NCBI GenBank assembly: GCA_036505055.1
Contig: DASXUE010000021.1
Coordinates: 42,467 to 106,466, forward strand
Length of the DNA: 64,000 nt
From: Gemmatimonadales bacterium
Lineage (GTDB): Bacteria > Gemmatimonadota > Gemmatimonadetes > Gemmatimonadales > GWC2-71-9
Direction of reading: 5' to 3'
Shown: piece after piece, positions 1-48,668 of the stretch
Layout: each line of letters begins with the position of its first letter
Numbering within the stretch: position 1 is the first letter of the stretch
The notes under the pieces: generated by a model
Database searches by the model: none
Told to the model about the DNA's origin: nothing
The model's input: only the letters and a program-made list of their open reading frames with translations
Made by a program: the position numbers and the translations under genes

Positions 1-236
1 GTCCCCGAGCGGCTGCGGAGCGTGGAGAACTGCGAGCTGTGCACCGACGACAGCCCCGAAACGATCGCGGCGGCGCTGGAGCGCGTGCTGCGGCGCGGAG
101 GCCGCTGCGATGGGCGGCGCACCGTCCTGTCCCTCGCGGAGGAAGCGCTCACCCAGCGCGTGATCGCCGTGTATCGTTCCGTGCTCGACGCGCAGGGCGC
201 GCGCGCGGGGGTCTCACCCTCAGGAGTCGCATCGTC

Positions 237-252
<16 letters not shown>
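1..252 (+). CDS. 3' end of a probable glycosyltransferase gene (5' part upstream of window)
   Basis: Frame +1 is open from nt 1 to TAG 250-252. The tail ...CELCTDDSPETIAAALERVLRRGG... resembles GT1/GT4 C-termini. It overlaps the asnB start by 16 nt. The family call is weak. Confidence 0.4.
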
Positions 253-2229
<1,977 letters not shown>

Positions 2230-2249
<20 letters not shown>

Positions 2250-3762: not shown

Positions 3763-3992
3763 GACAGCGCTCACTGGTGGAAACCGGGGGGACAATCATT
3801 CACCGAGGGCCGCGGCGACACAAGAAGCAACGTCACCACAAGGTGGTTTCCGGCGATGATTCAACTCTGTGGCAAGATGCTGGCAACCGGAGCGCGATCG
3901 GGCGCCGCGCGGCGCCCGCGGGCAACATCGTAACTCAGTGTCACAACGCCGGTTACGTGGATCATCCGTGGGGCGGGGGAACGGCACGAAAG

Positions 3993-5972
3993 ATGAGTAA
4001 CAGTACGCCGATGACCACCATCCCCCTGCGGGCAGGCAGCCCCGCCCAAGACGGCGTCGCCCGGTCACTCGGCGTCCTCGAGTCCGTAACGCTGCGCAGC
4101 TTCACGGTCCGCCGCCTCGTCAAGATCGCCCTCGACTTCGCCTGCGGCATGGCTGCCGTCGGCCTCGCCGTGCTGCTGGAGCGGCCTGCCGGGCCGGCGC
4201 CGGCGGGTTGGGGACTCCTTGCGGTCGGCACGGGCGCCGTGCTCGTGGCCAGCCACGCCCTCGGGGGCAGCTACCGGGCCATCTGGCGCTACACCAGCCT
4301 GCGTGAGGCGATCAGCACGGGAGTGTCCAGTCTCGCCGTGCTGGCAGCCTTGGCGATCGCGAATGCGGTCGGGGTTGTAGTCATTTCCCCCACGTTGGCG
4401 GTGCTGGTCACGCTCTTTTCCGTCGTGCTTTGCGCCGGCCTGCGGACCCTGCGGCGCTGGCAGGTTTCGCTCGCCAAGCGCGGCGGCGTTCCCGTCCGCG
4501 TGACGCAGAGCCGTGCGGGCCCGCACCGGGTCCTGATCGCGGGTGCAGGCGAGCACGGGCTTTCGATCGCGCGCGACCTGCTGCGGTCCACGAATGACGG
4601 CGTGACGCTGGCCGGCTTCCTGGACGACGACCCCGCCAAGATCGGCGCGGCACCCCTTGGCTTGCCCGTCCTCGGGCCGTTGGCGGACGTCCTCACGATC
4701 GCGGAGCGGCACCAGGTCAACGAGATCATCGTCGCCATGCCCTCGAGCGCCCCGGACGTGGTCCGCGGCTTCGTGCGGCACGTCGAGGATTCGGGGCTGC
4801 GCGTCCGGACCGTGGGCGGCGTGGCGCGCTTTGTCCGTGGAGCCGCGTTGCATCGCCCCGGGCAGACGACCATCGAGGAGCTGCTGGCCGAGGGCTCCAC
4901 GGGAGCCGCAGGAGCGGGGGGGGTCCGCCGCGTGCTGGTCACCGGCGGCGCCGGGTACATTGGCTCACACCTTACCCGCATGTTGCTGGAGCGCGGATAC
5001 CACGTGCGCCTGCTCGACCGCTTCGACTACGGCCGGGCGGCGCTCGAGGGCATCGCCGGGCACCCGCACCTCGAGGTGATCGCGGGCGACATCACGTCCA
5101 GCCGCGACTTGACGCGCGCCCTCAAGGACGTCGACGGCGTGATCGCCCTCGCCGCGATCGTCGGCGATCCCGCATGCAATCTCTACCCCGACGAGACCGT
5201 CAACCTCAATTACCTCTCGACCAAGATCCTGGTCGACGCCTGCAACTTCTACGGCGTGCGCCGCCTGGTGTTCGCTTCGAGCTGCAGCGTGTACGGGTCC
5301 AACAACGGCGGCTTCCTCACGGAAGCGTCGCGCTTGAACCCCGTCTCGCTGTACGCGCGCACGCGGGTGCTCAGCGAGAACCTGCTGTTCGACCGCCGCG
5401 GCGATGTCGAGCCGGTGGTGCTGCGCCTCTCAACGGTGTTCGGGCTGTCCCCGCGGATGCGCTTCGACCTGGTCGTGAACACGCTGACCGCGCGGGCCGT
5501 GCTCCAGCACAAGATCGGGGTGTTCGGCGGCAATCAGTGGCGCCCGCACGTGCACTGCCGTGACGCGGCCCGGGCGTTCATCCTCGCGCTCGAGGCGCCG
5601 GCGCCCATGGTGGCAGGTGAAGTGTTCAACGTGGGCGGCGACGCTTCCAACCTGCGCATCGATGCGCTGGGAGAGCTGGTCGCCGAGATCGTCGGCGGCG
5701 TGGAAGTGGCGCGCCATGGCGACGTCGCGGACCCCCGGGACTACCGCGTCAGCTTCGCGAAGATCCGGCGCGTGCTGGGCTTCGAGCCCGAGTTCTCCGT
5801 CGCCCGCGGCATCCGCGAGGTCGCCGCCGCCGTGCGTGCCAATGCGCACTTCCAGCGGTTCGACGACCCCGTCTACCACAACGTCGAGGCCTTCAAAGAG
5901 GCCGTCGACACGCCCCGCCGGCGGCGGGACGACCGGGTCTCCGCTCCCGTCCGGCAGCTCGCGCAGGCTTAA
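3993..5972 (+). CDS. membrane-anchored NAD-dependent sugar epimerase/dehydratase (WbpM/CapD-like architecture)
   Basis: ATG 3993 follows GGGGGA. Hydrophobic N-terminus with about 4 TM segments. A Rossmann-like VLIAGAGEHG segment is followed by VLVTGGAGYIGSHL of an extended-SDR epimerase domain. Confidence 0.8.
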   Translation: MSNSTPMTTIPLRAGSPAQDGVARSLGVLESVTLRSFTVRRLVKIALDFACGMAAVGLAVLLERPAGPAPAGWGLLAVGTGAVLVASHALGGSYRAIWRYTSLREAISTGVSSLAVLAALAIANAVGVVVISPTLAVLVTLFSVVLCAGLRTLRRWQVSLAKRGGVPVRVTQSRAGPHRVLIAGAGEHGLSIARDLLRSTNDGVTLAGFLDDDPAKIGAAPLGLPVLGPLADVLTIAERHQVNEIIVAMPSSAPDVVRGFVRHVEDSGLRVRTVGGVARFVRGAALHRPGQTTIEELLAEGSTGAAGAGGVRRVLVTGGAGYIGSHLTRMLLERGYHVRLLDRFDYGRAALEGIAGHPHLEVIAGDITSSRDLTRALKDVDGVIALAAIVGDPACNLYPDETVNLNYLSTKILVDACNFYGVRRLVFASSCSVYGSNNGGFLTEASRLNPVSLYARTRVLSENLLFDRRGDVEPVVLRLSTVFGLSPRMRFDLVVNTLTARAVLQHKIGVFGGNQWRPHVHCRDAARAFILALEAPAPMVAGEVFNVGGDASNLRIDALGELVAEIVGGVEVARHGDVADPRDYRVSFAKIRRVLGFEPEFSVARGIREVAAAVRANAHFQRFDDPVYHNVEAFKEAVDTPRRRRDDRVSAPVRQLAQA

Positions 5973-8900
5973 GGCGCGCGGCTGGTCACCACAAAGACGT
6001 TGAAGTCCGGCCCCGTGACGAGCGGGGCGTTCGGACTGCCCCCGATCGGCGCTTGCGCCGTCACACCGCCCATGGGGAAGGACAACGCTCCACCGCCGAA
6101 CGTGCCCGACGCCACCGGGGCGCCGAAGATCTGCTGCACGTTCCGGATCTCGTAGAGCCAGCCGGGCGGTACGATCCCCGTGAGATCGACGCTGACGCTG
6201 GACTGGCGGGTAGGGTTGTAGATCGCCACCGTCGCCCGCCCCGGCTCGTACAGGTTCGGCCGGACGACGATCTTGGGCGCCGTCGGCTTCCCCGCAATCG
6301 CTTGATCGGTCGCGGCCAACCCGGTCGCCTGCTGCCATCCCGCGAAGGTGTAGGACGTCCCCTTGAGAATCCACGCCTTCGCGGCGGGGTCGCGATAATG
6401 CAGATTGCCGCTCCATGTCTGCCCGCTCGTGCTGGGGTCGTTCAGGCGCGCCATGGTGGCGTCGCCCACGAACGTATTCCCGATCCACTGCAGGTTCTGC
6501 CAGTAGCCCACCTCGGTCATCTCGCCGCCGCCCACGATGTAGTTGTTCCGCACCGTCGTGGTGCCGTTCAGCAGCGTGTTGTAGCCCATCCGGATGTTCC
6601 AGAAGCCGTGCCCGGGCGAGAAGTACAGGATGTTGTCGGCCACGACGTCGTTGTCGGCCACCAGGTTGCCGCCGATTTGGAGGTTCGGGTTGTCGTCCGT
6701 CGACAGCTCGCCGTTGTTGAACAGCACGTTCCCCTCGAACGTCAGGTTCTTGAGGGTCCCGCTCGACTCCGAGTAGCCGTGAATGCCGAACCCGAACTGG
6801 TTGAAGATGATGTTGTCGCGCGCGACCTTGACGCCCGGGGTGTTGTTCTTGATGTAGATCCCGTGGCCGTCCGAGCGCGTGGACGTCTGGTGCCCGCCGT
6901 TGAAGATGATCCACCCGTAGATCTCGATGTTCTGCGCGTCGTACTCGGTGTACGTACCGTGCCCCGTATCGTGCACGATCAGGTTCACGAGCTTCACGTT
7001 GTTCGCGTTGCGCACGTACACGCCCGTCGGCCGCAGACCGAGGACGTCGCCGCTCCGCGCGGTCGAGGAGTTCATGACCTCGAGACCCCAGTAGACCGCC
7101 CACGACCCGTCCACGGTGAACCCTTCGAGCGCCGAGCCGTTGCCGTCCAGAATCGCCCGCTCGCCGGGGTAGGCCCGCATCACGATGGGCGCCGCCGACG
7201 TGCCCGTGAGGCTGCCCGTGAACGTCCCGACATACCTGCCGTCGCGCACCCAGACGGTATCGCCCGGCTTGATCCGGCCGCCGGCGCCCGACATCGCGGT
7301 GCGCAGATCCCACGGCCGCGAAATGCTGCCGTCGTTGCCGCTCGATCCCGTCGTCGTGACGTAGAACCCGGCGTGCACGGTGCCGCCGCCCGTCGTGACC
7401 GTGACGGTGGCCGAACCGCTCTTGCCTTCACTCGTGGCGGTGATCGTCGCGCTGCCCGCGAGCAGGCCGGTGACGAGACCAGTCCCGTTGACGCTCGCGA
7501 CCCCCGTGTTGCTGCTCGCCCACGTGACCGCCCGACCGGTCAAGACGCCACCGGCCGAGTCCTTGGTCGTGGCGGCGAGTTGCACTGTCCCGCCGGCCGC
7601 GACGCTCGCCGAGGCCGGACTGACCGTCACCGAAGCGACGGGGACGTTCGCGACCGTAACCGCCGCCGTCCCGCTCTTCCCTTCGCTCGTGGCGGTGATC
7701 GTCGCCGAGCCCGCCACCTTGGCCGTGACCAGGCCGGCGGCACTCACCGTCGCGACGGTCGTGTTGCTGCTCACCCAGGTGATCGCCCGCCCCGTCAACA
7801 CGTTACCGGCCGAGTCCTTGGTGGTGGCCGTCAACTGCGCCGTCTTGCTGACGAACAGGCTGACCGAGGCCGGCGCGATCGTCACCGAGGCCACCGGGAC
7901 CACCGTCACCGTGATCGCCGACGTGCCGTTCTTGCCTTCACTGGTCGCGGTGATCGTGGCCGACCCCGCCGCGACGCCTGTGACCAACCCGCTCGCCGAC
8001 ACCGTGGCGACGCCGGCCGCGCTCGTGCTCCACGTGACCGTGCGTCCGGTCAACACGCCTCCGGCCGAGTCCTTGGTCGTGGCAGTCAGTTGAGCCGTCG
8101 CACCCACGCGGATGCTCGCCGACACGGGACTCACCGTCACCGTTGCCACCGGCACTGCGTTCACCGCGACGATGGCGGTCCCGCTCTTCCCTTCACTCGT
8201 CGCCGTGATCGTGGCCGATCCCACCGCGACCCCGCTGACCAACCCACTGGCCGACAGCGTCGCCACCCCGGCCGCGCTCGTCGTCCAGGTAACCACACGC
8301 CCGCCGAGGACATTACCAGCCGAGTCTTTGGTGGTCGCCGTGAGCTGCACGGTCCCGCCAATCACCAGGCTCGGTGCCGCCGGACTCACTGTGACCGTCG
8401 CCACCGGGGCGAGCGTCACTGAGACGGCCGCCGTGCCGCTCTTCCCTTCGCTCGTCGCCGTGATCGTCGCGGACCCCGCCCCGACTCCGGTAACCAAGCC
8501 ACTGGCGGATACCGTAGCGACCCCTGCGGCGCTCGTCGTCCACGTGAGCGCGCGCCCGGTCAGTACGTTCCCGGCCGAGTCCTTCGGCGTGGCCGTGAGC
8601 TGGGTCGTACCGCCGACCCGGATGCCCGCCGACGCCGGACTCACCGTCACCGTCGCCACGGGCACGGCGCTCACGGTGACTGCCGCGGTTCCACTCTTGC
8701 CTTCGCTCGTCGCGGTGATCGTGGCCGATCCCACCGCGACCCCGCTGACCAACCCACCGGCCGACACCGTCGCCACCCCGGCCGCGCTCGTCGTCCAGGT
8801 AACCACACGCCCGCTGAGGACGTTACCAGCCGAATCCTTGGTGGTCGCCGTGAGCTGCACGGCGCCGCCAACCACCAGGCTGGGTGCCGCCGGACTCACC

Positions 8901-10345
8901 GTGACTGTCGCCACCGGGACGAGCGTGACGGAGATGGCCGCCGTACCGCTCTTCCCTTCGCTGGTCGCCGTGATCGCCGCGGACCCCGCGCCGACGCCAC
9001 TGACCAGGCCACTCGCCGACACCGTGGCGACGCCGGCTGCGCTCGTCGCCCACGTGACCGCGCGCCCGGTCAGAACGTTGCCTGCCGAATCCTTGGGGGT
9101 CGCCGTGAGCTGAGTCGTACCGCCGACCCGGATGCCCGCGGACGCCGGACTCACCGTCACCGTCGCCACGGGCACGGCGCTCACCGTGGCCGCGGCGGAT
9201 CCACTCTTGCCTTCGCTCGTGGCGGTGATCGTCGCGGATCCCGCCGCGACGCCGGTCATGAGCCCGCCGGCCGATACCGTTGCCACGGCCGGTGCGCTGC
9301 TCGCCCACGTGACCACGCGTCCCGTCAGCGGATTGCCATTCGCGTCCTTCGGAGTGGCGGTGAGCTGCGCCGTCTGACCGACCAGCACGCTCGGCGAGGC
9401 GGGGCTCACGGTTACCGAGGCCACCGGCACTGGGGTCACCGTGATCGCCGCCGTGCCGTTCCTGCCCTCACTACTGGCCGTGATCGTGGCCATCCCGGCA
9501 GCGCCGCCGGTCACCAGCCCGGTCCCACTCACCGCCGCCACCGGCGCGTTGCTCGTCGTCCAGGTGATCGTCCGCCCGGTGAGCGGATTCCCATTGGCGT
9601 CCCTCGGCGTCGCCGTCAGTTGCACGCTCTGGCCAGCCGTCACGCTCGCCGACGCGGGGCTCACCGTCACCGACGCCACCGGCACCACCGTCACCGTGAT
9701 CGCCGCCGTGCCGCTCTGCCCCTCACAGACGGCGGTCACCGTGGCGACACCCGCGGCCATGCCGCTCGCGAGCCCGCTGCCGTTGACGGTGACCACCCCG
9801 GGGTTGGTCGAGGCCCAGGTCACCACCCGCCCACTCAGCGCATTGCCGTCCGCATCGTACGGCGTCGCGGTCAGCTGCACCGTTTGCCCGATCATGACGC
9901 CCGCCGTGGCCGGACTGACCGCGACGGTCACCACCGTCGCGGGCGTCACCGTCACGACGGCCGTGTCAGACGGTCCTCCCGGATTCCCTTTGGCGACGAC
10001 TTTGACTTTTCCGGTATCCGCACCGGCCCGATAGCGTCCGCGATGCTGGCCGTTGGTCGTGCTCGTGTCGACGATGCTGCCGCTCGTGACGCTCCAGCTC
10101 ACCGCCATCGCGGCCGTGTCGCCCGTGCCCGTGACGCCGACGGCGGTGAAGTCGGTGGCTTGGTACTGCTGCAAGGTGAACGTCTTGGGGGAGACTTCGA
10201 GCCGATACGCATTCTCACCAACTGGCGGCCGCGTGGGCAACTCACACGAGACCACCGCGGCGATGGCCAGCGCCACCGCCGTGAAGCCGACGCCCTGCTG
10301 TCGCATCCGGGCCAGACGCTGGGCCAGCTTGAAGGTGAAAGGCAT
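5969..10345 (-). CDS. giant cell-surface protein: signal/lipobox, 1 divergent + 10 canonical Big_2 Ig-like domains, C-terminal beta-helix module
   Basis: ATG 10345 is preceded by GGAGGA (the ORF-track TTG at 10357 lies inside the SD). N-terminus ...AVALAIAAVVSC. Ten 85-aa units of the form VTVSPAS..QLTAT.KD..GN.L.GR.VTW..S...VATVS..GLV.G...GSATITATSEGKSG. The last ~470 aa are paralogous to the 2230-3762 product. Confidence 0.85.
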   Translation of the reverse strand: MPFTFKLAQRLARMRQQGVGFTAVALAIAAVVSCELPTRPPVGENAYRLEVSPKTFTLQQYQATDFTAVGVTGTGDTAAMAVSWSVTSGSIVDTSTTNGQHRGRYRAGADTGKVKVVAKGNPGGPSDTAVVTVTPATVVTVAVSPATAGVMIGQTVQLTATPYDADGNALSGRVVTWASTNPGVVTVNGSGLASGMAAGVATVTAVCEGQSGTAAITVTVVPVASVTVSPASASVTAGQSVQLTATPRDANGNPLTGRTITWTTSNAPVAAVSGTGLVTGGAAGMATITASSEGRNGTAAITVTPVPVASVTVSPASPSVLVGQTAQLTATPKDANGNPLTGRVVTWASSAPAVATVSAGGLMTGVAAGSATITATSEGKSGSAAATVSAVPVATVTVSPASAGIRVGGTTQLTATPKDSAGNVLTGRAVTWATSAAGVATVSASGLVSGVGAGSAAITATSEGKSGTAAISVTLVPVATVTVSPAAPSLVVGGAVQLTATTKDSAGNVLSGRVVTWTTSAAGVATVSAGGLVSGVAVGSATITATSEGKSGTAAVTVSAVPVATVTVSPASAGIRVGGTTQLTATPKDSAGNVLTGRALTWTTSAAGVATVSASGLVTGVGAGSATITATSEGKSGTAAVSVTLAPVATVTVSPAAPSLVIGGTVQLTATTKDSAGNVLGGRVVTWTTSAAGVATLSASGLVSGVAVGSATITATSEGKSGTAIVAVNAVPVATVTVSPVSASIRVGATAQLTATTKDSAGGVLTGRTVTWSTSAAGVATVSASGLVTGVAAGSATITATSEGKNGTSAITVTVVPVASVTIAPASVSLFVSKTAQLTATTKDSAGNVLTGRAITWVSSNTTVATVSAAGLVTAKVAGSATITATSEGKSGTAAVTVANVPVASVTVSPASASVAAGGTVQLAATTKDSAGGVLTGRAVTWASSNTGVASVNGTGLVTGLLAGSATITATSEGKSGSATVTVTTGGGTVHAGFYVTTTGSSGNDGSISRPWDLRTAMSGAGGRIKPGDTVWVRDGRYVGTFTGSLTGTSAAPIVMRAYPGERAILDGNGSALEGFTVDGSWAVYWGLEVMNSSTARSGDVLGLRPTGVYVRNANNVKLVNLIVHDTGHGTYTEYDAQNIEIYGWIIFNGGHQTSTRSDGHGIYIKNNTPGVKVARDNIIFNQFGFGIHGYSESSGTLKNLTFEGNVLFNNGELSTDDNPNLQIGGNLVADNDVVADNILYFSPGHGFWNIRMGYNTLLNGTTTVRNNYIVGGGEMTEVGYWQNLQWIGNTFVGDATMARLNDPSTSGQTWSGNLHYRDPAAKAWILKGTSYTFAGWQQATGLAATDQAIAGKPTAPKIVVRPNLYEPGRATVAIYNPTRQSSVSVDLTGIVPPGWLYEIRNVQQIFGAPVASGTFGGGALSFPMGGVTAQAPIGGSPNAPLVTGPDFNVFVVTSRAP
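7376..9925 (-). repeat. ten tandem 255-bp coding repeats (Big_2 domains)
   Basis: The 85-aa period can be read in the translation. Shadow ORFs 8161-8361 and 8671-8871 are near-identical at a 510-bp offset. Confidence 0.9.
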
Positions 10346-10355
10346 CGCTTCCTCC

Positions 10356-10485
10356 AAAAAAAAGAAGGCCGCCGGTTCGACCCCGAGAGGTCGACGCTGG
10401 CGGCCCGGCTGGCATGGCGGCTGATGCCGCGGTAGCCCCGTTAGCTCTGCGTCACCGCCTTTCGGCGGCTTTGCTCTGAGCAGCG
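10356..10485 (-). promoter_or_regulatory. structured 5' leader element, copy B (candidate riboswitch/attenuator) ending in terminator + U8, then SD and ATG of the giant gene
   Basis: Minus-strand RNA: CGCUGCUCAGAGCAAAGCCGCCGAAAGGCGGUGACGCAGAGCUAACGGGGCUACCGCGGCAUCAGCCGCCAUGCCAGCCGG + GGCCGCCAGCGUCGACCUCUCGGGGUCGAACCGGCGGCC + UUCUUUUUUUUGGAGGAAGCGAUG. Confidence 0.55.
10367..10405 (-). terminator. intrinsic-terminator-like hairpin with U-tract inside the leader
   Basis: Outer stem GGCCGCC/GGCGGCC plus inner stem UCGACC/GGUCGA, followed by UUCUUUUUUUU (A8 on the plus strand at 10356-10363). Confidence 0.55.
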
Positions 10486-10519
10486 CTGGTCGTCATTGTC
10501 CGACTCCCTGGCGGGCGGC

Positions 10520-10651
10520 GGAAAACGAAACCGGGCCGCCGCAATCGACTGGAGTCGATTCGCTGGCGGCCCGGCTGGCATGGCGGCTGGTGCCGCTGTA
10601 GCCCCGTTGGCTCTGCGTCACCGCCTTTCGGCGGCTATGCTCTGAGCAGCG
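10520..10651 (-). promoter_or_regulatory. structured leader element, copy A (tandem duplicate, 166-nt period)
   Basis: The 5' ~80 nt are nearly identical to copy B. The hairpin GGCCGCCAGCGAAUCGACUCCAGUCGAUUGCGGCGGCC keeps the outer stem but has a different, still self-complementary, inner stem. It is followed by CGGUUUCGUUUUCC. Confidence 0.5.
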
Positions 10652-10803
10652 TTCGTATTGCAACGCGGAGTCGGTCACCCGACTCAGCGCGTTTGGACCC
10701 CGGGGAGGCAAGATGTGTTCCCGACGCCACGGGAAAGGCGCTGCCGTGCGAGCCGCGCGTCACTTAGCGCGCGTGATTTGATGTGACTTGGGAGGCTGTT
10801 GTG

Positions 10804-10841
10804 GTACCGCAATATGCATTGAACAACGCAGTTTGCGGTAC
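10804..10841 (-). terminator. long stem-loop 7 nt after the stop of the 10849-12915 gene (no U-tract)
   Basis: GUACCGCAA-AC-UGCGUU-GUUC-AAUGCA-UA-UUGCGGUAC, i.e. 9 + 6 bp. Confidence 0.4.
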
Positions 10842-10848
10842 TTTGCGC

Positions 10849-12915
10849 TCACTGAGGTCGACTCGTGACCACAAAAACGTCGAATGCCGGCCCCGTCACG
10901 AGCGGGGCGTTCGGGCTCCCACCGATCGGTGCCTCGGCCGTCACGCCGTTCGTCGGGACCTGTACCACCCCGCCGCCGTAGGTGCCGCTCGCCACCGGCG
11001 GACCGAAGGGCGTCTGCACGTTCCGGATCTCGTACGCGTACCCCGGGGTCACGACCCCGCTGAGATCGACGCCGACGCTCCCCTGTCCGCCCCAATTGTA
11101 AATCGCCACCGTGGCCCGGCCGGCCTCGTACAGATGGGGACGGATCACGACCTTGGTCGACGTCGGCGGCTGCGCAATGGCCTGGTCTCCGCTGGCGAGT
11201 CCCGTCGCCAGCTGCCACTGGGGGAACGTGTATTCCGGGATCAGGTAGCGCCATTCGGCCTGGGTCGGGTCGCGGTAATGGAGGTTTCCGCTCCAGGTGT
11301 GCCCGCTGGTGTTGGGATCCTGCAGGCGAATCATGTCGGCCGTCCCGATGAAGCTGTTGCCCAGAACCTGTAGGCCCGCCCAGAAGCCCACTTCCATGAT
11401 CTCGCTGCCACCCACGATGTAGTTGTTGCGCACGACGGCGTGGCCGTTGGGATATATCGAGAATGGCTGCCCCATGCGGACGTTCAACCCGCCGTGCCCG
11501 GGCGAAAAGTAGGTCAGGTTGTCCGCCACGAGATCGTTGTCCGCGACGCGCAGGCCCCCGAGCAGCAGGTTCGGGTTGTGGTAGTCCGACAACTCGCCGT
11601 TGTTGAACAGGATATTCCCGGTGATCAGGAGATTCCGCAGCGCGCCGTCCGATTCGGTGTAGGCGTGGATCCCGTGGCCGAACTGGTTGAAGATCACGTT
11701 GTCCCGGACCACCACGTCCCCGGGGCCGTCGTGCTTCACATAGATCCCGTGCCCGTCCGAACGGGTGCCGTTCTGATGGCCGCCGTTGAAGATGATCCAC
11801 CCGTAGATCTCGATATTGTGGGCGAAGTACGCGATGAAGGTCCCGTGGCCGGCGTCGTGCACGATCAGGCTGATCAGCTTGACGTTGCTGGCGTTGCGCA
11901 CGAAGACCCCGGTCGGCCGGAGCCCCAGCCCGGCGCCAATCCGGTCGGTCATCGAGTTCATAATCTCGAGCCCCCAGTACACCGCCCACGAGCCGTCGAC
12001 GTCGAACGTGCTGCCGCTGTTGCCGCCGTTGCCGTCGATGATCGCTCGCTCGCCCGGATAGGCCCGCACCACGATCGGCGCGGCGGCGGTCCCGGCCAGC
12101 GAGGTCGTAAACGACCCCTGGTACGTGCCGCCCCGGACCCAGACCGTGTCCCCGGGGTGTACGCGCCCGCCGGCGCCCGAGAGGGCCGTCTGGAGGTCCC
12201 AGGGGGCGCCCGCGCTTCCGTCGCCGGCGCCCGAGCCATTGGGCGCCACGTAGTGGCCGACAGGCAGGACCACGACCGTGGCCGCCACGCCGGCACCAGC
12301 AAAGGTGGCGACGATCTGCGTCCCGCCCGCGCCCTGCGCCGTGACGGTGGCCGTGCTGTCGCTCGTCGACTTCACGGCCGCGACGCCGGGGGCGAGCGTC
12401 GCCCAGACGACCGGTCCGGCGACGGGATCGCCCAGCTCGTCCCGTACCCGTGCCGTGAGCACGCCCGAGTCGGCGACGATCAGGGTATCCAGGACCGGCT
12501 CGATCGTGATCGTGACGCTGCCCAGCGCGACCTCGATAGCGACCTGGCCGGAGAGCGGTGTGAGCGTGATTTGGATGGTCGGGGTTGACCCAGCGTGGAC
12601 GTCGAGGACCGTCGTGCCGCGGTGGGTCTCGATACCCCCCGCGTCGTACGCGTGCATCGTGAGCGTCCGGTTCGAACCGGCCGGCAGCGCGACGCTGCCG
12701 ATGGCGAGCCCGTTCGTGACCGGGATGTTGAAGACGAGCGGCGCCGTGATGTCGGGGGCGGTGACCTGCACCACGACGAGCGCCACCGAGGTCGCCGACA
12801 CGTCGGCCCGCAGCACGAGGGTCACGGTGGGGGGGACGGAAGGTGGGCGCGTCAGGTCGCCCGGCGCGCAGGCCGCCAGCCCTAAACACAAGCCTAACAA
12901 CGCGGAACGCGACAT
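10849..12915 (-). CDS. lipoprotein: Ig-like + Big_2 N-terminal module fused to beta-helix module (paralog 3)
   Basis: ATG 12915 gives MSRSALLGLCLGLAAC (lipobox). The N-terminal ~190 aa are paralogous to the 13726-14403 product. The C-terminal ~470 aa are closely similar to the giant protein tail. Confidence 0.8.
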   Translation of the reverse strand: MSRSALLGLCLGLAACAPGDLTRPPSVPPTVTLVLRADVSATSVALVVVQVTAPDITAPLVFNIPVTNGLAIGSVALPAGSNRTLTMHAYDAGGIETHRGTTVLDVHAGSTPTIQITLTPLSGQVAIEVALGSVTITIEPVLDTLIVADSGVLTARVRDELGDPVAGPVVWATLAPGVAAVKSTSDSTATVTAQGAGGTQIVATFAGAGVAATVVVLPVGHYVAPNGSGAGDGSAGAPWDLQTALSGAGGRVHPGDTVWVRGGTYQGSFTTSLAGTAAAPIVVRAYPGERAIIDGNGGNSGSTFDVDGSWAVYWGLEIMNSMTDRIGAGLGLRPTGVFVRNASNVKLISLIVHDAGHGTFIAYFAHNIEIYGWIIFNGGHQNGTRSDGHGIYVKHDGPGDVVVRDNVIFNQFGHGIHAYTESDGALRNLLITGNILFNNGELSDYHNPNLLLGGLRVADNDLVADNLTYFSPGHGGLNVRMGQPFSIYPNGHAVVRNNYIVGGSEIMEVGFWAGLQVLGNSFIGTADMIRLQDPNTSGHTWSGNLHYRDPTQAEWRYLIPEYTFPQWQLATGLASGDQAIAQPPTSTKVVIRPHLYEAGRATVAIYNWGGQGSVGVDLSGVVTPGYAYEIRNVQTPFGPPVASGTYGGGVVQVPTNGVTAEAPIGGSPNAPLVTGPAFDVFVVTSRPQ

Positions 12916-26769: not shown

Positions 26770-27795
26770 ATGCCCCGCCCACCCAGCCCCCGGCTCCTGC
26801 AGGATCCAAGGCTCCTCGATCCGGCCGATGCCACGGCCCGCATCGCCTCCGCATTGCGCCACCAGCTGGGGGAGGTGCTCCAACGCCGCGGCCTCGTCGT
26901 GGCGATGAGCGGCGGGATCGACAGCTCGGTATGCGCGGGGTTGGCGGTCCGCGCCGTGGGGCCGAAGCGGGTGTTCGGGCTCTTCCTCCCGGAGCGCGAA
27001 TCGGACCCGCAGAGCCTGATCCTTGGGCGCGAATGGGCGGAGCAGCTCGGCATCGACTCCACTGCCGAAGACATCGCGCCGATTCTCGAGGCATCGGGGT
27101 GTTATCGCCGGCGCGATGACGCGATCAGGCGTGTTGTGCCCGAGTACACGGCGGCGTGGCGCAGCAAGATCGTGCTCGACGTCGACCGGCTCGAGTCCGA
27201 CCGCCTGAACGTGTCGTATCTCGCGGTCCAGCCTCCGCACGGCGCCCTGCGTCGCGTGCGCCTGCCGGCCGCCGAATACCGGCAGATCGTAGCGGCGACC
27301 AACTTCAAGCAGCGCGTGCGCAAGATGCTCGAGTACTACCACGCCGACCGCCTGCACTACGCCGTGGTCGGCACCCCCAATCGGCTCGAGTACGATCAGG
27401 GCTTTTTCGTCAAAGGCGGCGACGGGCTCGCCGACGTCAAGCCGATCGCCCACCTCTACAAGACGCAGGTCTATCACCTGGCGGAGCATCTCGGGGTCCC
27501 GGCCGCAATCCGGACCCGCGTCCCGACGACCGATACGTACTCCCTGCCACAGACGCAGGAGGAGTTCTACTTCTCGCTCCCCGTGCGCACCCTCGACCTC
27601 GTGCTGCACGCGCGGGACGAAGGGCGCGGTGCCGCGGAAGTCGCGGCCGAGCTGGGGTACCGGCAGGAGCAGATCGAGCGGGCGTTCACCGACATCGATC
27701 GGAAGCGCTCGGCGGCCGAGTACCTGCATCACGGCCCGCTGCTGGTGGAGCCGGTCTCGCCGGGCGAACGGCACGCGCCGCGGGACATCGCGTAG
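26770..27795 (+). CDS. NAD+ synthetase-like ATP pyrophosphatase (NadE family)
   Basis: SGGIDSS PP-loop motif and the KPIAHLYKTQVY region. The start is uncertain (ATG 26770 chosen; the ORF is open from 26662). Confidence 0.75.
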   Translation: MPRPPSPRLLQDPRLLDPADATARIASALRHQLGEVLQRRGLVVAMSGGIDSSVCAGLAVRAVGPKRVFGLFLPERESDPQSLILGREWAEQLGIDSTAEDIAPILEASGCYRRRDDAIRRVVPEYTAAWRSKIVLDVDRLESDRLNVSYLAVQPPHGALRRVRLPAAEYRQIVAATNFKQRVRKMLEYYHADRLHYAVVGTPNRLEYDQGFFVKGGDGLADVKPIAHLYKTQVYHLAEHLGVPAAIRTRVPTTDTYSLPQTQEEFYFSLPVRTLDLVLHARDEGRGAAEVAAELGYRQEQIERAFTDIDRKRSAAEYLHHGPLLVEPVSPGERHAPRDIA

Positions 27796-29786
27796 TGTGC
27801 GGGTTTGCCGGAGTCGCCCACAGCGACGCACAGGGCGTCGCCCCCGAGATGTTGGCGCGGATGGCTGCCGTGCTCCGTCATCGGGGCCCGGACGGCTATG
27901 GCTACTACGCGGGCGCGCGCGTCGGGCTCGCGCACGTGCGCCTCAGCGTCATCGACCTCGCCGGTGGCGCGCAGCCCCTCAGCAACGAGGACGGCCGCGT
28001 CCTGATCGCCTACAACGGCGAGGTCTATAACTACCGCGAGCTGCGCCACCAGCTGGAAGCCGCCGGCCACCGGTTCCGCACCCAGAGCGACACCGAAGTC
28101 CTGGTCCACGCCTACGAGCAATGGGGCGAGGAGATGCTCGCCCGCTTGAACGGCCAGTTTGCGTTCGCGATCTACGACCGGCGTAGCGAAACCGTGCTGC
28201 TCGCCCGCGATCGCTTCGGCGTGCGGCCGCTGCACTACGCCGAGCGCGGTGGCACGCTCTACTTTGCGTCGGAGATCAAGGCGCTGCTCGCCACCGGCGA
28301 CATTTCTGCCGAGCCCGACTACGCCGGTCTCGACGAAGTGTTCACTTTCTGGGCCGTGCGCCCACCGCGCACGCCCTTCGCGGGGGTCCGCTCGCTCGAG
28401 CCGGGCTGTGCCGCGGTGTGGCGCCGCGGCCGGCTCCAGGTGCGCCGCTATTACGCGCTCGATTACGCCGAAGTCGGAACGGAAGCGCCCGGCGCGCTCG
28501 CCGAGATCGACCACCTGCTGCGTACGGGTGTGGACCTCCGGATGCGGGCGGACGTGCCGGTCGGGGGGTACCTGAGCGGCGGCCTCGATTCGAGCGTCAC
28601 GTGCGCGCTCGCGGCGGCGCAATCGCCCTACGAGCTCCGGACCTTCTCGGTCACCTTCAACGACCCGCAGTTCGACGAGAGCGCCGCCCAGCAGGCCGTG
28701 GCACGGAGCCTGCACACGCGGCACGCCGTCCAGCCGATTCACGGCAGCGAAATGGCGGAGGCCTTTCCCGACGTCATCTGGCACACGGAGACCCCGCTGG
28801 TCCGCGCCGCCGCGGCGCCGATGTACCTGCTCGCGCGCCTGGCGCGCGCCAACGGGATCAAGGTGGTGCTGACGGGTGAAGGAGCCGACGAGCTCTTCCT
28901 CGGGTACGATTTGTTCAAGGAGACGGCGGTCCGCGAGTTCTGCCTGCGGCAGCCTGCGTCCCGGTGGAGGCCGCGATTGTTCGACCGGCTTTACCCCTAC
29001 CTCAGCGGGGACGGGACGAGCACGGCAGGCAGCCGCGGCGGCGAATTCTGGCGCCGCTTCTTTTTGGACGCGGGTCCGGCGGACGATCCGCTGTTCTCGC
29101 ACCTGCCGCGCTTTCTGCTCACCTCGCGAATCAAGGACTTCTACACGGCCGACATGCGCGCGGCGCTCGCGCACGCCGACCCGCTCGAGGAGCTGCGCGC
29201 GAGCCTGCCCGCGGGGTTCCGCGCGTGGTCGGCCCTCAACCGCGCCGCCTACCTGGAGATGGTGACGCTGCTGTCGCCCTATCTCCTCAGCTCGCAGGGC
29301 GACCGGATGGCGATGGCGCACGGGGTCGAGGGCCGCTTCCTCTTCCTCGATCATCGCCTGTTCGAATTCGCCTCCGCCCTCCCCACCCGGAGCAAGCTGC
29401 GCGGATTGCGGGAGAAAGACATCCTGCGCCGCTGGGCGGCCGGGGTGCTGCCGGCGTCGGTGGCGCAGCGCCCCAAGCAGCCGTACCGCGCACCCGACGT
29501 ACCGGCCTTCTTCGGTTCGGCGGGCCGCCCCGCGTACGTCGCGGAGCTGCTCGAGGCGTCCAGCCTGGCACAGGGCGGCATCTTCGAGCCGGCCGCCGTG
29601 GCCGGCCTGGTGCGGCGCGCGGAGGCGGGCCGCGCCAAGGGCGTCGGCGAGAGTCAGGCGCTGGTGGCAATCCTGTCCACGCAGCTGTGGCACAAACAAT
29701 TCGTGCAGACGCCGGTCGTTCCGCCGACCTGGACGCTGGGCCGTGCGGACGTAGCGCTGCAAGACGAAGTGTCGGTCGCGACGTGA
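27795..29786 (+). CDS. asparagine synthetase-family amidotransferase (second copy)
   Basis: GTG 27795 overlaps the NadE-like TAG by 1 nt (TAGTG). Gives (M)CGFAGV... with the SGGLDSS motif. 663 aa. Confidence 0.9.
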   Translation: MCGFAGVAHSDAQGVAPEMLARMAAVLRHRGPDGYGYYAGARVGLAHVRLSVIDLAGGAQPLSNEDGRVLIAYNGEVYNYRELRHQLEAAGHRFRTQSDTEVLVHAYEQWGEEMLARLNGQFAFAIYDRRSETVLLARDRFGVRPLHYAERGGTLYFASEIKALLATGDISAEPDYAGLDEVFTFWAVRPPRTPFAGVRSLEPGCAAVWRRGRLQVRRYYALDYAEVGTEAPGALAEIDHLLRTGVDLRMRADVPVGGYLSGGLDSSVTCALAAAQSPYELRTFSVTFNDPQFDESAAQQAVARSLHTRHAVQPIHGSEMAEAFPDVIWHTETPLVRAAAAPMYLLARLARANGIKVVLTGEGADELFLGYDLFKETAVREFCLRQPASRWRPRLFDRLYPYLSGDGTSTAGSRGGEFWRRFFLDAGPADDPLFSHLPRFLLTSRIKDFYTADMRAALAHADPLEELRASLPAGFRAWSALNRAAYLEMVTLLSPYLLSSQGDRMAMAHGVEGRFLFLDHRLFEFASALPTRSKLRGLREKDILRRWAAGVLPASVAQRPKQPYRAPDVPAFFGSAGRPAYVAELLEASSLAQGGIFEPAAVAGLVRRAEAGRAKGVGESQALVAILSTQLWHKQFVQTPVVPPTWTLGRADVALQDEVSVAT

Positions 29787-38767: not shown

Positions 38768-39254
38768 TGGGATCCACCCGGAAGAGGACTTGCCCGAACT
38801 CGACCGGCTGCGCGTTCTGCACGCACACTTCCTTCACGACTCCGCCGACCTCGGACTCGATCTCGTTCATGATCTTCATCGCTTCGATGACGCACACCAC
38901 CTGACCGACAGTGACGCGGCTCCCGACCTTCACGTAGGGCTGAGCGCCGGGCTCGGGGGCCGCATAGAAGGTCCCGACCATGGGAGACGGAATCCCGAGC
39001 AGATGGGAGGCGGGGGCTGCCACCGACCCCTCCCCCGTCCCCCGTCCCCCTTCCCCGGGCCGGGAGAGGGGGGACGGGGGAAGGGTGGGCTGCGCCACCA
39101 CGACGTGGCCGCCCGCGTTCCCCACCGCGTGGCCGGCTTTCGAGACCCGGACGGACGACCAAGCGCCGAACCACCCGCGCCGGATCTCGATGGCGCCCAC
39201 GTCCGGGGCGTCCTTCAGGATCTGCACGAGCTGCGCGATGATGTCGAGCTTCAT
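38760..39254 (-). CDS. accB: acetyl-CoA carboxylase biotin carboxyl carrier protein
   Basis: ATG 39254. The C-terminal biotinyl domain carries EAMKIMNEI. Only the C-terminal 164 codons of ORF 38760-40130 are credible. Confidence 0.9.
   Translation of the reverse strand: MKLDIIAQLVQILKDAPDVGAIEIRRGWFGAWSSVRVSKAGHAVGNAGGHVVVAQPTLPPSPLSRPGEGGRGTGEGSVAAPASHLLGIPSPMVGTFYAAPEPGAQPYVKVGSRVTVGQVVCVIEAMKIMNEIESEVGGVVKEVCVQNAQPVEFGQVLFRVDPNG
39027..39089. repeat. imperfect inverted pair of (GGGGGAC)n heptamer arrays in the accB linker
   Basis: Left arm: cccctcc cccgtcc cccgtcc cccttcc ccg. Spacer: ggc. Right arm: cgggagaggggggacgggggaagggtggg. Confidence 0.85.
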
Positions 39255-46160: not shown

Positions 46161-48668
46161 TCACCGCGCCTTGGCGAGCGCCTTCACGCGCTCGCCCACG
46201 TCCAAGAAGCGGATTTCGACGGCGAACACCCGCCCGTATAGATCGCGCGCATCCACCTTCTTCCCCTGTTCCTCGAGCGCCCGCGCCAGCCAGTACAGCA
46301 CGCCGAGCCGCTCCTGATCCCCGGACGCGGGCAGGTCCAGCCCGCGGCGCAGGATCGACTCGGCGACGCCGTAGGCGCCCTTGTCGAAGAAGCAGACCCC
46401 GAGCAGCTCGGACGTCCGCAGCTTGCCCTCGGGAGCGCGCAGCGCCTTCTGGAACTCCGCGATCGCTTCGTCGAGGAGACCCATTTCCTTGAACGCCACG
46501 CCCAGATCGTAGTGCGACTGGAAGTCCGCCTCGTCGATGTTCTCGTCGATGCCCTGCTTGAACCGGGCCAGCATGTCGTGAAAGTCCTTCTCCTCGTCGC
46601 CGGTCGGCTCCTCGTCGGCGACCGTCATGCGGCTGTCTTTGGCGGGCGTGTCATCCTCCATCATCATCGACCCGAGATCGATGAAGTTTCCGCCCAGGTC
46701 GGCCTCGTCACGCACTTTCATCTTTGCGTCCTTGGCCTTGGTCTTCCCTTCCTTCGGCGGCTCCGCGGACGCCGGCGCGAGCATCGCGAGCGCCGCTTTG
46801 GCCCGCTCGTTCCGCGGATCGTGCTCGGCGCAGCGAAGGTATACGGCGCGCGCCTTCTCCGGCAGGTCGGTGCGCAGTAGCGTGTCGGCGAGCTCGAGGT
46901 ACGCGTCGACAAGCTTGCTCTTGTCCCCGGCCTTGAACGAAAACTCCACCGTCTTCTGGCGGTGCCGCACGCTGTTCGGATCGAGCCGTAAGATCTCGTC
47001 CACCAGATCCTGCGCCTGCTGCAAGTTGCCGGCGTTCTCGTAGCCCGTCGTGGCGAGGTCGAGCTCCTCGATCCCGCGATCCCGGTCGCCCCCCTCGATC
47101 AAGGCTTCCCCGAGCGCCTGGTGCGCCTCCGGATCGTCGGGGTTGTCCGCCACCCGCGACTCCAGCTCGTCGATCGACGCCGCGGCGGGGGCCGCTTCGA
47201 TATTCCCGAAAACGAGCGACCCGGACTGGTCGCCCTGATTCATGATGCCGTCGAGCCCCAGATCGATGAACCCCGACTTGCGGCCCACGGAGATCGACGT
47301 GTCGTCGTCCGTCGTGATAAAGCTGGGGTGCGCGTGCCCCTCCTCGATCGCGAGCGGCTCGTCGTCGACGTCGTGACCCGCGTCGGTCGTCGCCGTCTCG
47401 AAATCGGGTTCCAACTCGAGCGGCGGCACCTCGACCACCGTCTTCCGCTTCTCGGGTGGAGGCGCGGGCGTGGGCGCCGACGGACGCTTCGGCACCACCG
47501 GCTTGACCTTCGGCGGCTCGGCTGCGGGGGCCGCCGGCCGTCCCAGCGGCTTGAGCGTGGGCGGCCCCGCCTTCGCCGCAGCCGGCGCTTGCTTCGGCGG
47601 CGCCGGCGGCGGCGGCGGTGTCTTCCGGAGCGGCGGTGGAGGTGCGCGACGGGGAGGCGGTGGCGGCTCGTCGTCGAGGTCGAGGTTGCCGTCCAGAACG
47701 AGGTCGGCCTCCTCGAGGGCGTCCGCCTCCTCCGCGTCGGCCGCAGTGGGCTCGAGCTCGCTCATGGGCTCGAGATCCAGATCCGCGGGATTCAGCTCCT
47801 CGCGGATCGACGGCGTGCGGGTCGCGCCCGCCCGCACCTCGCCGAAGTCGGCGTGCGTCGTCTCCAACCCCTCGAGCATCCCACCGCCCGGCTGCGCGGC
47901 GTCTTCGGACAGGCTCGTGGTCTCGATCTCCAGCGACTCGTCGGGCTCGGGCTCCGGCGCCGGCGCGCGGAGGGGGGGGGAGGGGGCCGCCCTGGAGAGT
48001 GGCGGCGCGGGCGCGATGCTCGACTTTCCGCCTTTGGGCGACGCTGGCGCGTTGACATCGAGGAACACGAGGCTCGACGTCTTGCGCTTCCCCGACTTGG
48101 AGAGATCGTCTGCCGCTGGGGGTTTCGCGGCGGGTGGGACGTTCGCGCGCACCGACGACCGCCGCCCCGGGTCGCCGTACATCTTGAGGTGCTCGTACAG
48201 GATCTCGCGGAGGTTCTCGCTCTCGGGCGAGATATCGGTGAACTCCTTCAGCGCCGCGAACGCCAGCTCGATTTTCCCGGCCTTCTGCATCCGCTCGGCG
48301 TACTGCACGAAGTTGTGTTGCGCCTCGGCCATGAAGCCCTTCGCGGCGTACAGCTTCGCGAGCTTTAAGTACGTCGCTTGCCGCGCCGGCGCGTTGCGCA
48401 CCACCTTGTTGCACATCGCGATGGCGTTGTTGTGAAAGCCGAGCTCGGCATACTTGTCCACCGCGCGGTCGTAATAATCCGCCGCCTCGGCGGGGTCCTT
48501 CAGCTTGATGTAGAGGTCACCGATGCGGTTGTAGATCGCGAGGTCGGGGTTCGCTTCCCCCTCGGATTCCTGCACCTTGAGCGCGTCGATCCAAGTGTCG
48601 ATGGCCTTTTTGGGGTCCCGGGCCTCCAGGCCCTTGGCCCTGTCTTTCAGCTGCTCAAGTTTGGACAT
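46161..48668 (-). CDS. TPR-repeat protein with ~350-aa Pro-rich disordered centre
   Basis: ATG 48668. TPR-like helices at both ends and a central PPPPxP-rich region. Confidence 0.7.
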   Translation of the reverse strand: MSKLEQLKDRAKGLEARDPKKAIDTWIDALKVQESEGEANPDLAIYNRIGDLYIKLKDPAEAADYYDRAVDKYAELGFHNNAIAMCNKVVRNAPARQATYLKLAKLYAAKGFMAEAQHNFVQYAERMQKAGKIELAFAALKEFTDISPESENLREILYEHLKMYGDPGRRSSVRANVPPAAKPPAADDLSKSGKRKTSSLVFLDVNAPASPKGGKSSIAPAPPLSRAAPSPPLRAPAPEPEPDESLEIETTSLSEDAAQPGGGMLEGLETTHADFGEVRAGATRTPSIREELNPADLDLEPMSELEPTAADAEEADALEEADLVLDGNLDLDDEPPPPPRRAPPPPLRKTPPPPPAPPKQAPAAAKAGPPTLKPLGRPAAPAAEPPKVKPVVPKRPSAPTPAPPPEKRKTVVEVPPLELEPDFETATTDAGHDVDDEPLAIEEGHAHPSFITTDDDTSISVGRKSGFIDLGLDGIMNQGDQSGSLVFGNIEAAPAAASIDELESRVADNPDDPEAHQALGEALIEGGDRDRGIEELDLATTGYENAGNLQQAQDLVDEILRLDPNSVRHRQKTVEFSFKAGDKSKLVDAYLELADTLLRTDLPEKARAVYLRCAEHDPRNERAKAALAMLAPASAEPPKEGKTKAKDAKMKVRDEADLGGNFIDLGSMMMEDDTPAKDSRMTVADEEPTGDEEKDFHDMLARFKQGIDENIDEADFQSHYDLGVAFKEMGLLDEAIAEFQKALRAPEGKLRTSELLGVCFFDKGAYGVAESILRRGLDLPASGDQERLGVLYWLARALEEQGKKVDARDLYGRVFAVEIRFLDVGERVKALAKAR

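Follow-up and report, generated by a model that had tools for sequence, protein, structure and literature searches.

The subject of this analysis is the leader of a giant lipoprotein gene on a 64,000-nucleotide (nt) stretch of the Gemmatimonadales contig DASXUE010000021.1; the whole stretch is called the window below. The leader lies on the minus strand at 10722-10343, in front of a gene for a predicted lipoprotein of 1458 amino acids (aa), and carries the same unit twice. These two units are very probably independent GEMM-I riboswitches (cyclic di-GMP-I, or c-di-GMP-I, family) acting in series, each with its own terminator and each working as an ON switch. Their most likely ligand is 3',3'-cGAMP (cyclic GMP-AMP), unless they are bispecific. 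The duplicated leader is a pair of GEMM-I riboswitches, and so a fresh example of a well-known device and not a new RNA class. For the window itself the result is mainly one of annotation, in that the duplicated leader is explained.

Layout of the leader

The two units start at 10651 and 10485, with a spacing of 166 nt. Aptamer A, which has the GEMM-I fold, occupies 10561-10651 and is followed by terminator hairpin A (10531-10574) and U-tract A (10522-10530). Aptamer B, with the same fold, occupies 10395-10485 and is followed by terminator hairpin B (10367-10405) and U-tract B (10356-10366). All of these are on the minus strand, as is the Shine-Dalgarno sequence GGAGGA (10350-10355), which lies 4 nt 5' of the ATG start codon (10345) and is free in both predicted folds. 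A sequence-only reading of this DNA had described the tandem duplication, the hairpins, the U-runs, the GGAGGA and the ATG at 10345, and the sequence agrees with that description. The shared 5' part was given there as about 80 nt; near-identity holds, but its true extent is slightly longer, about 91 nt. Columns 10-100 of a pairwise alignment of the units contain only four mismatches, and the aptamer parts are identical at 86 of 90 positions (96%). The 321-nt leader has a folding energy of -164 kcal/mol (z = -5.3 against dinucleotide shuffles).

Family assignment and aptamer fold

A covariance-model search against Rfam, which the sequence-only reading had proposed, was run with cmscan on the whole window. 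It returned exactly two matches above gathering score, both full-length members of the c-di-GMP-I family (RF01051). The matches lie at 10651-10562 (53.3 bits) and 10485-10396 (56.1 bits), with a gathering score of 35, and each covers model positions 1-87 of 87. In a permissive Rfam search of the window, no further member of the RF01051 clan was found. When the window was rescanned with R1, a model made in this analysis, aptamer A scored 96.9 bits and aptamer B 97.1 bits. A third R1 match (46762-46836, 23.9 bits) was rejected as a chance match; it falls inside the open reading frame (ORF) of a TPR protein and was not reported by Rfam. The earlier view of the leader as a tandem riboswitch/attenuator resembling GEMM is therefore upheld by two full-length RF01051 matches, a terminator and U-tract platform for each copy, and covarying relatives. 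The further idea of a possibly new type of element has to be dropped, since both copies belong to a curated family. A search of the literature found no description of these riboswitches in Gemmatimonadota.

Helix P1 has the same sequence in both aptamers, CGCUG paired with CAGCG (10651-10647 with 10565-10561 in A; 10485-10481 with 10399-10395 in B). In aptamer A, helix P2 with its GAAA loop is found at 10635-10620. The sequence-only reading had missed a canonical second helix, but P3 with a receptor-like motif is present in both copies. It spans G10613-C10568 in copy A and G10447-C10402 in copy B, and runs from just after GACGCA to CCGGGCC. Where the consensus has its tetraloop receptor (CUAA/uAuG), P3 carries the internal loop GGCUAC...CAUGCC, with the receptor-like motif CUA/AUG. 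For an aptamer-only transcript of A, the minimum free energy (MFE) structure computed with ViennaRNA is the three-helix fold. Every structural hallmark of RF01051 is present, and the conserved G20 (numbering of the Vc2 riboswitch) is the only expected feature missing.

Terminators and predicted switching mechanism

Both copies end in a GC-rich hairpin with an immediate U-run, the form of an intrinsic terminator. Hairpin A has the outer stem CCGGGCCGCC/GGCGGCCCGG and the inner stem AAUCGAC/GUCGAUU, amounts to about 21 pairs in the MFE fold and leads into the interrupted U-tract UUUCGUUUU. It fails the stem-loop rule of a simple terminator scan and passes the overlap test. Hairpin B, which is found in the MFE fold and also called by the simple scan, has the outer stem GGCCGCC/GGCGGCC and an inner stem around UCGACC/GGUCGA. 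Its 14 pairs form two 7-bp stems with an internal loop, followed by UUCUUUUUUUU. The sequence-only reading had taken the inner stems of A and B as compensatory variants of each other. Both hairpins exist, but the difference between them is mostly a register shift of a common UCGAC/GUCGA core. A genuine compensatory change is seen only in hairpin A compared with its ortholog at the related locus L004 (AAUCGAU/AUCGAUU, C-G to U-A).

The 5' arm of terminator A (10574-10561) consists of the 3' strand of P3 of aptamer A, a G, the ligand-pairing C and the 3' strand of P1. Similarly, the 5' arm of terminator B overlaps aptamer B at 10405-10395, and takes in the last bases of P3, the ligand-pairing C and the 3' strand of P1. 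Aptamer and terminator are mutually exclusive because the 5' arm of the terminator is the aptamer's own 3' end. In ViennaRNA calculations, the terminator fold is more stable than the best P1-closed fold by 11.8 kcal/mol in A and 13.6 kcal/mol in B. The greater stability of the terminator fold and the shared strands lead to the prediction that each unit is a ligand-induced ON switch. When no ligand is present, the more stable terminator would form and transcription would stop. Binding of a cyclic dinucleotide would lock P1 and P3 and block the terminator, and RNA polymerase would read through. The same geometry is known from the GEMM-Ib riboswitch of Geobacter pilM, for which ON switching has been proven, with the ligand-pairing C tied up in the terminator (PMC9262584).

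Each platform overlaps the switching strand of its own aptamer, the arrangement that defines multiple expression platforms. The units would act independently in series, because each has a platform of its own and because 59 of 70 related leaders contain the A-type unit as a singlet, again with this terminator. Under a strict rule, 39 of 74 type-a relatives are followed by a complement of GCCGCC(AG) and a U-run, and most of the others are near misses. RNA polymerase would thus have to pass two checkpoints in series, so that a full-length mRNA would require ligand twice. Compared with a single switch, a steeper response and a lower leak would be expected by analogy with published serial arrangements of the same class with multiple expression platforms, which are called pseudo-cooperative and are expected to give a steeper response (PMC9481103).

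Relatives and conservation of the doublet

Relatives of the units were gathered from at least 120 loci, with one genome per species, by a core-sequence pattern that required A at position 20. Among the loci listed, about half are metagenome-assembled genomes (MAGs) of Gemmatimonadota, and the rest belong to Nitrospirota, Clostridia, Chloroflexota, Desulfuromonadales and others. Elsewhere, too, the relatives mostly precede a same-strand ORF with a ribosome-binding site (RBS). The core columns of the relatives are invariant because the sequences were collected by a core pattern, and the covariation sits in the helices which the pattern left free. In alignment A2 of 91 aptamers, 92.4% of the cells are paired under the P1/P2/P3 structure. 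The sequence-only reading had called for a covariation test on homologous leaders, and strong covariation was found: the score is 0.45, compared with at most 0.105 when the partners were slid by 1-3 columns, and none of 500 shuffles reached the observed value. Twenty of the 28 pairs, including all five P1 pairs, are changed on both sides, and all five helices are supported across the 91 sequences.

The homologs of the downstream protein, where named, belong to Gemmatimonadales or Gemmatimonadaceae. At locus L001, where the downstream protein is 86% identical, the doublet is retained directly upstream of the gene. At L004, where the protein is 58% identical, the doublet is found one gene further upstream, before a Big_2/beta-helix paralog. 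Terminator hairpin A is conserved at both loci with one compensatory pair. Judged from this distribution, the doublet is older than the split of lineages whose downstream proteins share just 58% identity.

The second aptamer at L001 (5862-5955) and L004 (3086-3178) differs from the first. It has no extra A after GCC, GAG replaces GGG, and CACGCC is present. Aptamer B of the window (10485-10395) has the markers of the first copy, yet retains its own terminator type. This combination suggests that aptamer B was overwritten from aptamer A by gene conversion in the lineage of the window.

Three of the related contigs (L006, L012 and L122) are labelled Bacillati, Chloroflexi and Armatimonadetes and have a riboswitch of the Gemmatimonadota type; L012 additionally has a MPFTFKLSKRLA-type N-terminus. 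These contigs are probably mis-binned. A Deltaproteobacteria MAG (L096:7795-7435, minus strand) contains four GEMM-I aptamers back to back, with gaps of 0-3 nt. They have no individual terminators, precede a small ORF and have A, G, G and A at position 20 by eye, an architecture unlike the tandem of the window.

Ligand signature

The contact set of RF01051 is G20, A47 and C92 in Vc2 numbering. In both copies A47 and C92 are kept (A47-equivalents at 10614 in A and 10448 in B; ligand-pairing C, the C92-equivalent, at 10566 and 10400), and G20 is replaced by A. This residue is the conserved unpaired G just 5' of P2 (RF01051 model position 11), which is A at 10641 and 10475. The mapping of position 20 was fixed via the helix and junction boundaries in two published descriptions (PMC6274999; PMC6140456), and that of the first P3 pair by covariation. 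In the Geobacter riboswitch Gs1761, J1/2 is A9-A14, P2 is C15-G40, J2/3 is A41, P3 is A42-U73 and J1/3 is G74-C75 (PMC6274999), and the specificity nucleotide A14 corresponds to G20 of Vc2 (PMC6140456). The first P3 pair covaries among the 91 aptamers (70 G-C, 17 A-U and 4 A.C) and is G-C in both copies of the window (G10613-C10568 and G10447-C10402). The difference between GCAGAGC and GCAAAGC pointed out by an earlier reader is therefore a base-pair swap.

As judged from these contact residues, the change of G20 to A puts the element in the A-variant subclass, still inside the GEMM-I fold family. Both copies have A as the last J1/2 nucleotide, just 5' of the first pair of P2. This is the defining feature of GEMM-Ib, and an A at this position marks c-AMP-GMP variants (PMC9481103). 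The set A/A/C corresponds to the c-AMP-GMP (GEMM-Ib) signature. Since both copies have A20, the ligand is probably 3',3'-cGAMP, or cGAMP together with c-di-GMP. In the Gemmatimonadota-type set, A20 is invariant in 74 of 81 aptamers, in a collection that is biased towards A.

Comparison with known riboswitches

The aptamers share with Vc2 of Vibrio cholerae, the prototype of RF01051, the three-helix fold, the GAAA loop on P2, the GACGC and AGC blocks, the intercalating A47-equivalent, the C92-equivalent and a J1/2 of the form CAG-N. They differ from Vc2 in the A at the G20-equivalent, in a first P3 pair that is G-C instead of A-U, in the Gemmatimonadota host, and in the use of a terminator, predicted to be of the ON type, as expression platform.

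The A at the last J1/2 nucleotide is shared with the GEMM-Ib riboswitches of Geobacter (Gs1761/pgcA and Gm0970/pilM). Those are ON switches with a terminator that competes for the P1 strand and the ligand-pairing C (PMC9262584), as is predicted for the window. Geobacter also has GEMM-Ib riboswitches in tandem pairs, and the omcAHG pair likewise stands upstream of genes whose proteins are extracellular or lie at the surface (PMC6456294). The targets differ, being Big_2 lipoproteins here and cytochromes or pili in Geobacter. The junction differs as well; in the published residue names used for this comparison it is A9..A11, A12..A14 in Gs1761, and it is CUCAGA in the window. A P2 loop other than GAAA and further differences in the core set Gs1761 apart as well.

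Among the known tandems of one riboswitch class, those of c-di-GMP-I are the commonest; 347 doublets and 12 triplets have been catalogued (PMC9481103), and the triple c-di-GMP-I riboswitch Bc3-5 of Bacillus thuringiensis has been characterized (PMC4759541). Like tandems of the Bc3-5 type, the leader in the window consists of complete serial riboswitches with their own terminators, from which a sharper dose response would be expected (PMC9481103; PMC4759541). Unlike the catalogued tandems, the copies in the window are both A-type and unusually similar (96%), apparently via gene conversion. In the clusters of Desulfobacca acetoxidans, G-type and A-type GEMM-I riboswitches also occur in one genome, and the A-type has improved binding of c-AMP-GMP (PMC9481103). 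There, however, the partner is an adenosylcobalamin (AdoCbl) riboswitch, whereas in Gemmatimonadota relatives the A-type is paired directly with a G-type or, as in the window, with a second A-type.

Alternative explanations

Two near-identical adjacent copies could also be a dispersed repeat like repetitive extragenic palindromes (REP), or a recent duplication without function that merely resembles GEMM, and some relatives do reach up to six copies in 8 kb (L113). This explanation is effectively refuted. The sequence-only reading had named dispersal at many unrelated loci as evidence against a riboswitch, and such dispersal was not found: the 64-kb window holds just two copies, and copies elsewhere mostly stand upstream of same-strand genes with an RBS. 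Covariation preserves all helices, and the doublet predates the split of lineages with downstream proteins that are 58% identical. It is also very unlikely that the two aptamers form one cooperative unit like that of glycine riboswitches, with a single expression platform and hairpin A as a mere linker. The 96% identity of the aptamers and their common P1 sequence make cross-pairing conceivable, but a separate long GC hairpin with a U-run belongs to each aptamer and overlaps that aptamer's own P1/P3 strands, the unit stands alone with the same terminator in the 59 singlet leaders given above, and the literature counts tandem c-di-GMP-I systems among those with multiple expression platforms (PMC9481103). 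Two serial switches, each with its own terminator, remain the preferred architecture. The interrupted U-tract UUUCGUUUU is a point against it, because terminator A may for this reason be weaker than terminator B.

The remaining points that weigh against the preferred reading concern the ligand, and several of them favour the explanation that the same architecture responds physiologically to c-di-GMP alone, A20 being a tolerated lineage variant that acts as protonated adenine in an organism which makes no cGAMP. By analogy with known variants, A20 is no guarantee of selectivity for cGAMP. The selectivity of natural and engineered A-variants extends from about 1000-fold down to bispecific binding; Vc2 G20A and Cbe 1-2 bind both ligands, c-di-GMP being able to pair with a protonated A; for Vc2 G20A, binding of c-di-GMP (53 nM) is no weaker than that of cGAMP (120 nM), and Cbe 1-2 has a preference for c-di-GMP (PMC6140456). 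The J1/2 of the window, CUCAGA, resembles that of Vc2 carrying G20A and not that of Gs1761, and genes for surface proteins and adhesins are typical targets of c-di-GMP. Neither a cGAMP synthase nor a GGDEF gene was found within the 64-kb window, and a scan of 125 related loci with a strict GGDEF motif found none. To our knowledge, no Hypr GGDEF is known for the organism of the window. A sample whose collection pattern required A at position 20 gives no measure of how frequent A-type riboswitches are, and the prevalence of A20 in the Gemmatimonadota-type aptamers counts against c-di-GMP alone only with this bias in mind. Further arguments against it are that the same G-to-A change moves specificity to c-AMP-GMP in Geobacter and Desulfobacca (PMC6140456; PMC9481103), and that A-type and G-type aptamers in one leader (L037, L078, L104, L122, L059 and L113) would be redundant if both read c-di-GMP. 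A response to c-di-GMP alone is a serious contender that falls short of being probable. It is quite unlikely that the A-type flavour (CUCAG-A-GC, first P3 pair G-C, GCCGCC-AG) responds to some other dinucleotide or nucleotide signal, as yet uncharacterised. This distinct flavour is common to Gemmatimonadota, Nitrospirota, some Desulfuromonadales, Acidobacteriota and 'Eisenbacteria' MAGs, and the Rfam clan already includes orphan variants (RF03167). However, the contact set A/A/C is the very one of c-AMP-GMP riboswitches, the G that sets the flavour apart at position 48 is accounted for by the replacement of an A-U pair by G-C, and the best clan match is RF01051 itself.

Mixed tandems and possible cGAMP signalling

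In four related leaders (L037:4668-4917, L078:5345-5621, L104:996-721 and L122:2875-2600, the last two on the minus strand), an A-type aptamer is followed by a G-type aptamer. The A-type has a terminator, and the canonical G-type comes 65-90 nt later and abuts the RBS. The order is reversed at L059 (6751-7019; G-type first), and an A-A-G triplet is found at L113 (6983-7419). All aptamers of the mixed tandems are assigned to RF01051 or RF03167 by Rfam. The presence of A-type and G-type together in one leader argues for different inputs, and such mixed tandems could be natural two-input gates for cGAMP and c-di-GMP.

A wider proposal, possible rather than probable, is that the A-types of Gemmatimonadota and Nitrospirota are genuine 3',3'-cGAMP sensors. 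They would control a regulon of Big_2 lipoproteins with the N-terminus MPFTFKLS.RLA, often from sigma54 promoters, and some leaders would be cGAMP AND c-di-GMP gates, the A-A doublet of the window being a sharpened single-input version. If true, phyla for which no such pathway is known would have cGAMP signalling that works through riboswitches. Riboswitch-mediated cGAMP signalling has so far been found mainly in Geobacter and relatives, and the synthases are thought to be narrowly distributed (bioRxiv 10.1101/600031; PMC6456294). The dozens of Gemmatimonadota MAGs with A-type switches, some beside G-type switches, offer a direct and testable handle. They raise the question whether the display of surface proteins in soil Gemmatimonadota is decided by two dinucleotide signals.

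Regulated gene and its neighbourhood

The regulated gene (5969-10345, minus strand) was characterized by its Pfam domains, N-terminus and neighbours. The predicted lipoprotein contains two Big_1 domains, ten Big_2 domains and a C-terminal right-handed beta-helix (Pfam). Its N-terminus, MPFTFKLAQRLA, is followed by a hydrophobic stretch and the lipobox VVSC, and the lipoprotein signal is MPFTFKLAQRLARMRQQGVGFTAVALAIAAVVSC. Homologs of the protein were found in Gemmatimonadota. An NCBIfam search of the protein gave no family, and a PDB sequence search with its C-terminal 476 aa gave no match. The gene is probably monocistronic, because the next gene (3777-5972, plus strand) is convergent. The riboswitch pair probably switches on this giant surface protein gene, and the Big_2/beta-helix lipoprotein is predicted to be made only when the cyclic dinucleotide is high.

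The N-terminal motif M[PT]F.[FH]KL[SA].RLA, found at 10345-10240 (minus strand) in the window, is common to proteins behind Gemmatimonadota type-a riboswitches (L001, L012, L044, L072, L104, L109, L015, L048, L054 and others). It is followed by a hydrophobic stretch, the lipobox Cys and the first Big_2 domain, and no NCBIfam model was found for it. Taken together, these genes look like a regulon of surface lipoproteins that is controlled by riboswitches and has a signal motif specific to the lineage.

The neighbourhood comprises a beta-helix/pectate-lyase-like gene, MgsA, an epimerase and an asparagine synthase, in an order syntenic with related loci. Two paralogs of an asparagine-synthase-family amidotransferase are encoded in the window (39-2246 and 27156-29783, both plus strand), one of which shares the polysaccharide-type neighbourhood of the riboswitch-controlled gene, with its epimerase and beta-helix genes. 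That one also adjoins the Big_2 gene in L002 and L004.

Candidate promoter and upstream leader

A candidate sigma54-type promoter, GGGAACACATCTTGC, of the form GG-N10-GC, was identified from the sequence at 10708-10722 (minus strand), 56 nt upstream of aptamer A. It agrees with the sigma54 consensus TGGCAC-N5-TTGC at 8 of 10 positions. The site is nearly invariant in the window, L001 and L004, with one substitution and a flanking base. Of 80 type-a aptamers, 19 have a sigma54-type site 11-57 nt upstream, an approximately 8-fold enrichment over the background of 0.03 per 150 nt; besides the window, such sites occur in L009, L049, L052, L104, L109, L119, L125 and others. On the grounds of conservation and enrichment, a sigma54-type promoter may drive the leader.

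Between the candidate promoter and aptamer A lies a 7-bp hairpin with a GNRA loop, GAGUCGG-GUGA-CCGACUC (10668-10685, minus strand), which is retained in L001 with a G-U change and missing from L004. Further upstream, at 10740-10860 (minus strand), the blocks CTAAGTGACGC, GCAAACTGCGTTG and ATGCATATTGCGGTA are conserved in the leaders of the window, L001 and L004. These blocks could be activator binding sites.

Other features of the window

The remaining window is ordinary chromosome, with genes for AlaRS, RecA and FtsK, hut genes and others. A long inverted repeat of a C-run and a G-run, CCCUUCCCCCGUCCCCCCUCUCCC...GGGGAAGGGGGACGGGGGACGGGGGAGGGG, is found at 39023-39089 between the genes for a T2SSE-type ATPase and an M24 peptidase, and the 131-nt stretch containing it folds with -90 kcal/mol (z = -3.4). 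Weak matches to miRNA families on both strands at 39023-39089 were rejected as spurious products of this long G/C hairpin. At 54504-57995 (minus strand), a single ORF of 1163 aa contains a complete TatC domain (residues 14-225) and an LptD_2 domain (residues 465-930), and is either a fusion of an unusual kind or a pair of genes that share one frame with no stop between them.

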